Of a stretch of DNA of 64,000 nt, positions 7,224-9,062 are shown one piece after another; within the stretch, counting starts at the first letter, position 1, and every line of letters begins with the position of its first letter. Location: NCBI GenBank assembly GCA_022560735.1, contig JADFSO010000005.1:47822-111821 (forward strand), in the 5' to 3' direction. The DNA comes from Pseudomonadota bacterium. Its GTDB lineage: Bacteria > Pseudomonadota > Gammaproteobacteria > Steroidobacterales > MnTg04. The notes below the pieces were generated by a model. The model did not search any database and was not told the origin of the DNA. It saw only the letters and a list, made by a program, of their open reading frames with translations. The translations under genes were made by a program, and so were the position numbers.

Positions 7224-7766
7224 ATGCGCCGTTGGTTCTTACACAGCTTTTCAGTAGTCATCGTCCTGATTACATTGATCGCCGCTTGGCGCATTATGTC
7301 GACGACATTTGACCTGGCTGTTATTTACGCAACTGATGAAGACGATGGGCCGCTGCAAGAAATTTACCTTTGGCGAATCCGGAATCTGGAATCTTGTCCC
7401 TCCCTGGACTCATCTTCGCCTGAATCGCCAACTGGCTATGTGGTGAATGCGTACAATATGCCAAACACGGATAATGCAAAGGTATTCGAAGTCTTAGCGA
7501 TATTGATTGACATTGGTTGCGATATTAATGCACGAAATAGTTTTGGGGGAGTTCCTTTACACAACCCAGTTATGGCGGGAGAAATACAGATGGTGCGTTT
7601 CTTATTGCGCAACGGTGCGGATCCTTTCCTGCGGTTCGAAGGTAACGAGCGGAACTCGCATCTTTCCGGTCTCAACTCTTTTCAACTTGCCCAGCTTACG
7701 CAAGAGAAAATGGGCCGGAACACGGAGGTAATTGGTTTGTTGAGAGAGTATGAAGATGGAATCTAA
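7224..7766 (+). CDS. Cassette 1: membrane-anchored ankyrin-repeat protein
   Basis: N-terminal hydrophobic helix and ankyrin consensus (GCDINARNSFGGVPLH...VRFLLRNGADP). Low GC. Stop codon lies within ATCTAAC. Confidence 0.8.
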   Translation: MRRWFLHSFSVVIVLITLIAAWRIMSTTFDLAVIYATDEDDGPLQEIYLWRIRNLESCPSLDSSSPESPTGYVVNAYNMPNTDNAKVFEVLAILIDIGCDINARNSFGGVPLHNPVMAGEIQMVRFLLRNGADPFLRFEGNERNSHLSGLNSFQLAQLTQEKMGRNTEVIGLLREYEDGI

Positions 7767-7795
7767 CCAGTGACTGTGGTTCCAAGTCAACCCGA

Positions 7796-8740
7796 TTAGG
7801 CTAATTCAGGATCCCAATGCTGGCCGGTTTTCATCATCACATTGAGGATGGTGATCAGTTTCCTCATGCAGGCAACAATTGCCACCTTCGGTGGTTTTCC
7901 AGCAGCCTTCATTCTCAGGTAATTTCTTTTCAGCTTCGGGTTGGACTGTATGGCTGACATGATGGCCATGAACAGGACTGTGCGTACCCGCGCTCGGCCA
8001 CCACGGATGCGCCGTTTGCCTTGGTAATTGCCACTTTCACGATTCATCGGAGCAACCCCCACCAGCGCAGCGATTTGTTTGCGATTCAGCCTGCCCAGTT
8101 CCGGCAGATCACTGAGTAGCGTATAGGTCAGGATTTTACCCACGCCGTTGACACTCATCAGCAGATCTCTTTTCTCCTGCCATTGGGGTGTTTTATCGAT
8201 CAGCCGGTCCAATTGCTGCTCGACCTTTTTGACTGCGGCCTGGAGATACTTGAGATGCCTATTCAAGCTCGCATGGAGCGCTTTGGGGAGTATCGACAGG
8301 CGATTCTTTTCCATCGTCGACATGTCCAGCAATTGGCTACGCCGGGCCAGCAGATCACTGATCAGACGTACATTTTCAGGTTTTAGCTGGCTTGGATCAG
8401 GTTTTACGGCAGCGCCGAAATGAGCGATGACCCGGGCATCGAGGCGGTCGGTTTTAGCCAGCTGTCCCAGCGCCTGGGCAAACTTCCGGATGTGCATGGG
8501 ATTGGCGATGGTGACCGACAAGCCGGCCTTTTGAGCAGCAACCACAAAGGGCAGTTCCAGCCGTCCGGTGGCCTCAGTGATGATTCGGGTGGGCTTGATC
8601 TTTTTCAGCCGCTGGATGGCTTCCCGCACCCCTGCCGGCGTGTTGGGGACACTGAAAAACTGGTCCAGGGGACGAATATAAAGATCCAATTGAGTTTTAC
8701 TGGTATCGACGCCGACATTAATTTCGTAAGAAATATTCAT
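7796..8740 (-). CDS. IS110-family transposase / bridge recombinase
   Basis: 314 aa. DEDD RuvC-like motifs (GVDTSK, TEATG, KTDRLD) and a C-terminal domain with GVGKIL and RESG (catalytic Ser position). ORF intact. Confidence 0.95.
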
Positions 8741-8920
8741 GATAAGCTGACTCCGCCTTGCAATACGGGCTCGAGGCCCTAATGACTGTTCGAGTTATTA
8801 CTTAGGAGAAGCGCAGTGCTCACACTGGTTACCGGTCTCTCAGTAATGAGGAACCGCACATGCATCGAGCTACTGCACCTGGGCCTTCAGCAGCTACTGA
8901 AGGTGGGCCTCACTTTACCC
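8741..8920 (-). ncRNA. Predicted bridge RNA (5' hairpin, target-binding loop, donor-binding loop); ends approximate
   Basis: Stems: CCTTCAG/CTGAAGG; GTGCAGT-(A)GCTC/GAGC-ACTGCGC enclosing CGGT..CTCA/TGAG..ACCG; ACTC/GAGT enclosing GGGC/GCCC. The loop strands match the target and the circle-junction sequences (see findings). Confidence 0.8.
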
Positions 8921-9062
8921 GTTTTGCTACAAAATCAACCATACAAGCGCATGCAGTTCGCGCCTGCGGCGCCGGACCGGCCTGCGGCCGGCCGCTGATG
9001 CAGGTCGTTAGAAACCTGATCAAGGTATAGAGATAGCGCCCGAGGAACCACCACCGGGTTAC

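Follow-up and report, generated by a model that had tools for sequence, protein, structure and literature searches.

A 64,000-nucleotide stretch from a gammaproteobacterial contig of the Steroidobacterales (JADFSO010000005.1, positions 47,822 to 111,821; the whole stretch is referred to as the window) carries an insertion sequence (IS) of the IS110 group inside an attC site of a decayed integron. The best overall explanation, considered highly probable, is that this is a bridge-RNA element of the IS110 group with guides matched to attC. The argument comes from analysis of sequence: the anatomy of the element, covariation within its RNA fold and between its guides and flanks, the attC sites and the orientation of insertion, and the separation from the IS1111-attC group. 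Judged in this way, the element is an intact IS110-group insertion sequence in the lineage of ISCps7 and ISSde13. All positions follow the numbering of the window, and the IS is read on the minus strand.

The boundaries were obtained from the junctions and from the ends common to homologues. The homologues were collected by a protein search (more than 100 relatives at 68-96% identity) and by scans of genome and metagenome contigs (160 loci, with numbers prefixed L).

7771 to 8945, minus strand: IS body, 1175 bp (1177 bp including one CT).
8946 to 8947, minus strand: left-hand copy of the core dinucleotide CT, from the junction read.
7769 to 7770, minus strand: right-hand copy of the core dinucleotide CT, from the junction read, with CT at both ends of homologues.
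7796 to 8740, minus strand: intact gene for an IS110-family DEDD recombinase of 314 aa, with Pfam PF01548 and PF02371.
8741 to 8945, minus strand: left-end non-coding region and predicted bridge RNA, 65-96% identical in about 100 loci.

On the left side, GAAC is followed by TGCATGCG (8955-8948), the core CT (8947-8946) and TGTATGG inside the IS (TGTAT at 8945-8941). On the right side, the IS end CCACAGTCA (to 7771, with ACAGTCA at 7777-7771) is followed by CT (7770-7769) and the target GGTTAGAT (7768-7761), which opens with GGTTA (7768-7764). An earlier sequence-only reading of this DNA had placed the junctions and four guides, and all of its coordinates match this minus-strand read. The element consists of a 205-nt 5' non-coding end, the open reading frame (ORF) of the recombinase (ATG at 8740, TAA at 7796) and a 25-nt 3' end, and this long-5'/short-3' layout holds in about 100 homologues. 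No inverted repeat (IR) above chance is present at the IS ends, as that reading had claimed; the longest complementarity is 5 nt (TGGTT/AACCA) and does not exceed that of shuffles. The recombinase passes the NCBIfam model NF033542, 'IS110 family RNA-guided transposase' (213 bits against a cutoff of 140), and aligns over its full length with IS621 (E = 3.6e-35) and ISCro4 (E = 5.2e-37). Its domain plan is that expected of the IS110 group, a DEDD RuvC-like N-domain followed by a C-terminal Tnp (transposase) domain with the catalytic serine, and D12, E56, D98, D101 (DEDD) and S236 are invariant among its relatives (alignment A1).

Both flanks of the element belong to one attC site, in the following parts.

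7761 to 7768, plus strand: attC R'' (ATCTAAC, 7761-7767) plus C, the right target when read on the IS strand; the TAA of the ORF at 7224-7766 lies inside R''.
7214 to 7220, plus strand: core site GTTAGAT opening the ankyrin cassette, whose first bases are TTAGAT; the core site is complementary to R'' (ATCTAAC) of this same cassette.
8948 to 9013, plus strand: rest of the split attC, with L'', the variable loop, L' and R' GTTAGAA (9007-9013), from the fold of the rejoined site.

The ORF at 7224-7766 (plus strand) encodes ankyrin repeats. Beyond the IS the site continues as CGCATGCAG...CTGATGCAGGTC GTTAGAA, and the rejoined attC reads ATCTAACC-AG-CGCATGCAG on the cassette strand. Its fold (-37.9 kcal/mol) has the R box paired and, beyond a short spacer that stays unpaired, an L box in which a single base bulges out on the L'' side (GCAT[G]CAG versus CTGATGC, the extra-helical base in brackets); this layout is shared by L090, L002, L118, L149 and others. 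The inverse core ATCTAAC and the core GTTAGAA conform to the attC consensus (RYYYAAC and GTTRRRY) and pair as the R box. The claim that the target is attC had been made from the sequence alone, and it is borne out by the stop codon in R'', the complementary TTAGAT at the cassette start, the attC-like fold and a truncated integrase upstream. The IS interrupts attC within the R''-L'' spacer, in an orientation antisense to the cassettes. In the reconstructed sites of homologous loci, the bulge falls without exception in the 3' arm of the IS strand, which identifies that strand as the bottom strand of attC, as is the case in the window. In the window, three consecutive cassettes with attC-like sites lie beside a truncated intI. 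The two cassettes past the IS each end in (T)TxTAAC-CAG-TCG... (9573-9579, 10223-10229), and the neighbouring attC reads CTGCACCGA-CT-GGTTAGAA.

The same type of site is occupied throughout the family. The ends are conserved in about 100 homologous elements (53-96% protein identity), which come from isolates and metagenome-assembled genomes (MAGs) of Gammaproteobacteria, including Vibrio, and from marine-sediment metagenomes. Counted from the first base of one core copy to that of the other, complete homologues are 1175-1216 bp long (1177 for the window element), and their junctions follow the plan flank-CT-TGTATG... and ...A(C/T)AGTC(A/T)-CT-flank. Among 84 distinct right flanks, 78 read CT-N-GTTA (GTTA at +4 to +7), with CTTGTTA in 43 and CTGGTTA in 34. 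Where the flank is long enough, most loci yield a reconstructed empty site that folds into an attC hairpin (for example ACCTAAC GCT CGCAAC...GCTTGCG CTG GTTAGGT in L090), with fold z from -5.5 to -15 in L002, L118, L149 and L023. Further CT[GT]GTTA[GT] motifs in the flanks number 49 on the IS strand versus 10 on the other, about 9.6 being expected per strand, and flanking ORFs of at least 80 aa are antisense to the IS in 160 cases versus 39 in the sense orientation. A DNA search of plasmids returned only 70%-identity pieces of the RNA region, in Vibrio and Pseudoalteromonas; these pieces belong to relatives at 54-55% protein identity sited in attC-like repeats. Copies at this level of identity, on Vibrio, Photobacterium and Pseudoalteromonas replicons, lie amid small antisense ORFs and toxin-antitoxin pairs, in repeats which we take to be Vibrio-type attC sites.

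Four segments of the 5' non-coding end correspond to guides, and they act like guides in about 60 distinct homologous elements.

8856 to 8864, minus strand: left target guide UGCAUGUGC (DNA TGCATGTGC), matching TGCATGCG-C at 8 of 9 positions, plus one U-G wobble.
8825 to 8831, minus strand: right target guide UAACCAG (DNA TAACCAG), the exact reverse complement of CT-GGTTA.
8781 to 8789, minus strand: left donor guide ACAGUCAUU (DNA ACAGTCATT), matching the right IS end ACAGTCA-CT.
8757 to 8762, minus strand: right donor guide UGCAAG (DNA TGCAAG), pairing with CT-TGTA with one G-T wobble.

The rule stated for IS621 is that the left guides base-pair to the bottom strand and the right guides to the top strand, the core included (PMC11208160). 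The same strand rule holds for the guides of the window element and its relatives, which also keep the IS621 order of left target, right target, left donor and right donor guide, in agreement with the order and loop strands proposed previously. The left target guide, nine bases long, is bounded by a conserved GA and a conserved GG within the 5' side of the first internal loop, and is the most variable stretch of the RNA. It matches its own left flank at a mean of 7.52 of 9 positions, against 4.92 (sd 0.16) when guides are re-dealt among loci, and none of 10,000 permutations reached the observed value (63 distinct guide/flank pairs, 39 distinct guides, wobble scored 0.5). Chance guide matches were rejected on this family-wide test, and the flanks of homologous copies can be said to track the first loop, a comparison that the sequence-only reading had suggested. 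Perfect 9/9 matches include L002, L090, L109 and L084. That reading had described the left guide as covering the left target plus the first core base; this stands for the window element, L002 and L109 (8 nt plus the first core base), but not for the whole family, in which a second register of 7 nt plus CT, the layout of IS621, is used by L084, L117, L119 and L129. A single U-G wobble in this guide is common among family members.

The right target guide follows the right flank in the same manner, with TAACCAG facing CTGGTTA, TAACAAG facing CTTGTTA, TAAGGAG facing CTCCTTA (L131, L133, L134), AAAGCAG facing CTGCTTT (L084) and TAACAAA facing TTTGTTA (L039, L163). Similarly, the left donor guide follows variants of the right IS end (ACAGTCA, ATAGTCA and, in L039 and L163, ATAGTCG). 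The right donor guide of the relatives, AUA[G]CAAG, matches CTTGTAT discontiguously, a type of pairing reported by Durrant et al. for IS621 (PMC11208160). The choice of target might instead lie with the protein, or with recognition of the hairpin that attC forms, the guide-like matches being incidental. A fixed protein-DNA contact could explain the almost invariant xGTTA of the right flank, and the targets are palindromic structures, as for relatives that target repetitive extragenic palindromic (REP) sequences, but the hypervariable 9-nt loop tracks an equally variable left flank and the right guide changes along with the altered right flanks CTCCTTA, CTGCTTT and TTTGTTA. Moreover, a sister clade at 43-47% identity (L026-L047, Dehalococcoidia MAGs), with the same layout, different loops and several copies per genome, inserts into another palindrome, the REP-like GTCCGTTCGyC-CT-GAG...TCGAAGGG, which is itself repeated in the flanks. 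Recognition by protein or hairpin is thus very improbable, and since both loops and palindrome differ in the sister clade, targeting of attC is a property of one sub-lineage.

The fold of the RNA provides a second line of evidence for guidance, in the following modules.

8884 to 8903, minus strand: 5' hairpin CCTTCAG/CTGAAGG, 7 pairs, 6/7 changed on both sides, 98% paired.
8810 to 8879, minus strand: target-binding loop module with a 12-bp basal stem, internal loop and distal stem-loop; the basal stem is 99% paired, with 10/12 pairs covarying.
8750 to 8795, minus strand: putative donor-binding loop module with the distal hairpin GGGC/GCCC; stems mostly invariant.

The 207-nt 5' end folds at -85.8 kcal/mol (z = -6.4 versus shuffles, none of which is as stable). 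From 63 distinct 5' ends, RNAalifold predicts 32 pairs, and compensatory changes back 21 of these. For the named structure of 5' hairpin, 12-bp basal stem, internal loop and distal stem-loop, 92% of cells are paired versus 82% in shuffles, and the covariation score is 0.35 versus 0.15 shuffled (0/500), with slid controls at 0.06-0.09. The sequence-only reading had described a hairpin and loops in this end and had proposed that it be folded; the fold agrees, with covariation for the 5' hairpin and the target loop. Both target guides sit in one internal loop, on its opposite strands, and the donor guides occupy the expected positions in the donor-loop region. No family of Rfam 15 matches the 5' end even at E <= 10, the only gathering-level matches in the window being four tRNAs. 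RNA guidance, as claimed earlier, is supported because the target guides covary naturally with the flanks and the RNA fold is backed by covariation.

The following mechanism is proposed. The 5' non-coding end would encode a bridge RNA with a target-binding loop, which holds the 9-nt left and 7-nt right target guides, and a donor-binding loop, which would pair with both IS ends. The DEDD/serine recombinase, loaded with this RNA, would recombine the CT of an excised IS circle with the CT of attC, which is AG when the cassette strand is read. This CT of attC lies in the unpaired spacer between R'' and L'', and recombination there would leave the IS inserted in antisense to the cassettes. In the lineage as a whole, the right guide would stay fixed on the conserved R''-proximal sequence, with the left guide evolving quickly and following the host-specific L''.

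Each end of the element carries one promoter hexamer.

7785 to 7790, minus strand: -35 hexamer TTGACT at the right end, forming a promoter only across a circle or tandem junction.
8938 to 8943, minus strand: -10 hexamer TATGGT at the left end, part of the predicted junction promoter.

In a modelled junction, joining of the right end (RE) to the left end (LE) of the window element gives TTGACT-18-TATGGT; in relatives whose -35 lies 5 nt nearer the end, it gives TTGACA-17-GATAAT or GATGAT. A junction promoter of at least 9/12 is obtained in 51 of 54 distinct elements, versus 4/54 across the integrated left junction. At L110:2590-2830 a 5'-truncated copy is followed directly by RE-CT-LE of a second copy, head-to-tail; the predicted junction ACAGTCACTTGTAT therefore exists in nature, as a tandem. 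On this modelling, a promoter assembled only at the RE-CT-LE junction probably drives expression of the RNA and the recombinase after excision.

The window copy could, however, be an immobile relic of an RNA-guided family, with its guide wobble a sign of decay. The surrounding integron has decayed and its intI is truncated, no promoter is predicted for the integrated copy, and only a single IS copy is present in the 64 kb, where no intact second target was found (TAACCAGCGCATGCAG with up to 3 mismatches); the two other attC sites contain TAACCAG as well but have a different L''. A relic is nevertheless unlikely, as the ORF is intact with all catalytic residues kept, both ends, the four guides and the junction-promoter hexamers are preserved, a 96%-identical recombinase is present in another dataset, and the single U-G wobble is one that the family commonly shows.

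Several points weigh against an attC-directed bridge RNA. The loci are phylogenetically related, so the shuffle tests of guides against flanks overstate independence, and the left guide tolerates mismatches and a one-base register slip, with a poor left-flank match in L004, L005 and L089. The donor-loop stems are near-invariant, and a local GGGC/GCCC and a long-range GAGGCCC/GGGCCTC pairing fit equally well, with one covarying pair each. Neither a sigma-70 promoter nor a terminator is predicted in the integrated window copy. The attC sites were called by our own criteria and not by IntegronFinder or HattCI. Finally, we infer RNA expression, RNA-protein binding, circle formation and the chemistry of strand exchange by analogy with IS621 and seekRNA work.

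Targeting of attC has been attributed to another set of elements, the IS1111-attC group of ISPa21, ISKpn4, ISPst6 and ISPa25, reportedly treated by Tetu and Holmes in 2008 and by Post and Hall in 2009. If the window element were an ordinary member of that group, the shared target class, attC end and antisense orientation would follow directly, since IS1111-attC elements have been reported near the 5' end of attC, antisense to cassettes (PMC3001079). Both systems also have an RNA guide with top-strand and bottom-strand matches, as seekRNA-guided attC targeting has been shown for ISKpn4, ISPst6 and ISPa25 (PMC11187229), and the same outcome is expected, namely a split attC and immobilised cassettes. 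Placement by BLASTP, with the ISfinder transposases given in the supplement to Siddiquee et al. (PMC11187229), points elsewhere. ISCps7 (53.6%) and ISSde13 (53.0%) match the window recombinase over their full length and ISKpn42, ISEc32 and ISBcen8 match at 39-40% identity, whereas ISPa25 gives 28.6% over 126 aa (E = 1e-5) and ISKpn4 no match. In the supplement of Durrant et al., ISCps7 and ISSde13 are classed in the IS110 group with a predicted left-end bridge RNA (PMC11208160). The guide RNA of IS1111-attC is encoded downstream of tnp, whereas the window element has only 25 nt after its stop codon and 205 nt at its 5' end; IS1111-attC elements have subterminal IRs of 7-17 bp, in contrast to none above chance here; and they belong to the other subgroup of the family, with transposases barely alignable with the window recombinase. 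They have been described from Pseudomonas and clinical class 1 integrons, not from marine chromosomal arrays. Membership of IS1111-attC was rejected on the BLASTP comparison and is regarded as extremely unlikely on the evidence as a whole; the independence from that group which the sequence-only reading had suggested is supported. A further candidate for an IS1111 reference, the E. coli plasmid match H10, was dropped, being another IS110-type element.

The closest mechanistic counterparts of the bridge-RNA element in the window are IS621 and ISCro4 (PMC11208160; PDB 8wt6, 9t56). The recombinases, with DEDD and Tnp domains, align end to end, and the elements have in common a long left end with a structured RNA (a 5' hairpin plus two internal loops, the donor-binding one being putative in the window element), a left target guide of 9 nt, a CT core, a discontiguous right donor guide, the lack of long IRs and a target that is a repeated palindromic element. 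The IS621-like architecture that had been proposed is accordingly upheld by the 205-nt versus 25-nt ends, the CT core, the lack of subterminal IRs and the end-to-end alignment. The window element differs from IS621 in its right target guide (7 nt, compared with 4 nt), in its target (the attC R''/L'' junction instead of a REP sequence) and in the use of two left-guide registers in its lineage, and the recombinases are distant (full-length match, E about 1e-35). The closest named relatives, ISCps7 of Colwellia psychrerythraea and ISSde13 of Shewanella denitrificans, are below the usual thresholds for the same IS. ISSde13/IS110-like elements were found in five integron variable regions in a survey of Shewanella integrons, which reports no IS interrupting attC (PMC9229058); the site specificity was missed in that study. 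No published statement that ISCps7 or ISSde13 target attC was found in the searchable literature, nor was any report of attC targeting by an IS110-group element or this lineage, ISfinder and the subscription literature being outside the scope of the search. The mechanism and the target class are each known, but their combination in this lineage, and the use of a right guide that is fixed beside a left guide that varies, appear not to have been described.

It is thought probable, with less assurance than for the window element itself, that a widespread IS110-group lineage has specialised on attC independently of IS1111-attC. Its right guide would be fixed and its fast-evolving left guide (at least 39 variants) would track the host-specific L'', giving a natural series of bridge-RNA reprogramming. 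Members of the lineage come mostly from Gammaproteobacteria of marine origin and from marine-sediment metagenomes, Vibrio cassette arrays among them. The lineage would also be the third unrelated element at the 5' end of attC in antisense orientation, as group IIC-attC introns, too, insert near this end, antisense to cassette transcription (PMC3001079); the introns are retroelements with a ribozyme and reverse transcriptase, unrelated in sequence and chemistry. As IS1111-attC elements are reported at this end of attC and in this orientation, the convergence with them covers the end of the site that is used and the direction of insertion as well. If true, a third such element, after the introns and IS1111-attC, points to a shared selective reason, possibly a safe harbour that splits attC and freezes cassettes.

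For integron biology, this would mean that a second, unrelated IS lineage splits attC in environmental chromosomal integrons, where insertions should block folding of the site and freeze neighbouring cassettes. The known bridge-RNA mechanism stays unchanged, but the family provides dozens of natural guide/target pairs on one conserved scaffold, and with them testable rules of guide design, namely a longer right guide, tolerance of wobble and of a one-base slip, and variation of the first core base. As regards this base, the right core is CT in almost all loci (the right junction of L039 is TT), and the left junction is TT or AT at several loci, such as L100, L013, L150, L006 and L118. It is AT in L100, L013 and L150, with CT at the right junction of L100 and L013, and in these last two the ninth base of the left guide is A, agreeing with the AT junction. 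This suggests, from the sequences of L100 and L013, that a variant first core base is tolerated or targeted.

The integron of the window has a damaged integrase gene at its head.

5768 to 6178, minus strand: truncated integron integrase, 136 aa, with an internal deletion, at the head of the cassette array; Pfam Phage_integrase 5.9e-19.

The best NCBIfam match of the remnant is TIGR02249, integron integrase (3.1e-36), which covers profile positions 224-315 only and is below cutoff. By eye, an N-terminal piece seems to be fused to the last 92 or so residues, the part matching TIGR02249. The cassette array in the window can probably no longer rearrange by itself. The short array also holds a BrnT/BrnA pair in inverted orientation (6304-6845, minus strand), a cassette with BrnT and a CopG-like antitoxin (9063-9621, plus strand) and a further two-gene cassette (9700-10228, plus strand), HicA/HicB-like as judged by eye only.

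A number of minor observations were made among the homologous loci. In L109, L111 and L112 the 5' non-coding end is 94-95% identical to that of the window element and the recombinase only 69%, a contrast in sequence identity which suggests that the RNA module has been exchanged between IS lineages. The loci with right guide TAAGGAG (L131, L133, L134) have the flank CTCCTTAG, in which the inverted pair CTCTAAG/CTTAGAT replaces the usual xTAAC/GTTAx, and this site may be a variant attC or a different repeat. The left flank at L126:568-590 ends in AACAGTCA-CT, which resembles the right end of the IS and stands directly after an attC-like L sequence; it may be a trace left by a previous copy. L020 (Microbulbifer harenosus) and L021 (Alteromonas portus), from two different genera, carry the same truncated IS copy (to residue 252) between the same flanks, which could reflect cassette transfer with an IS remnant, or contamination. 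At L008:60-110 the left junction shows a tandem duplication of the initial 23 nt of the left end (CT-TGTATGGTCTGAAACGAGTTC).

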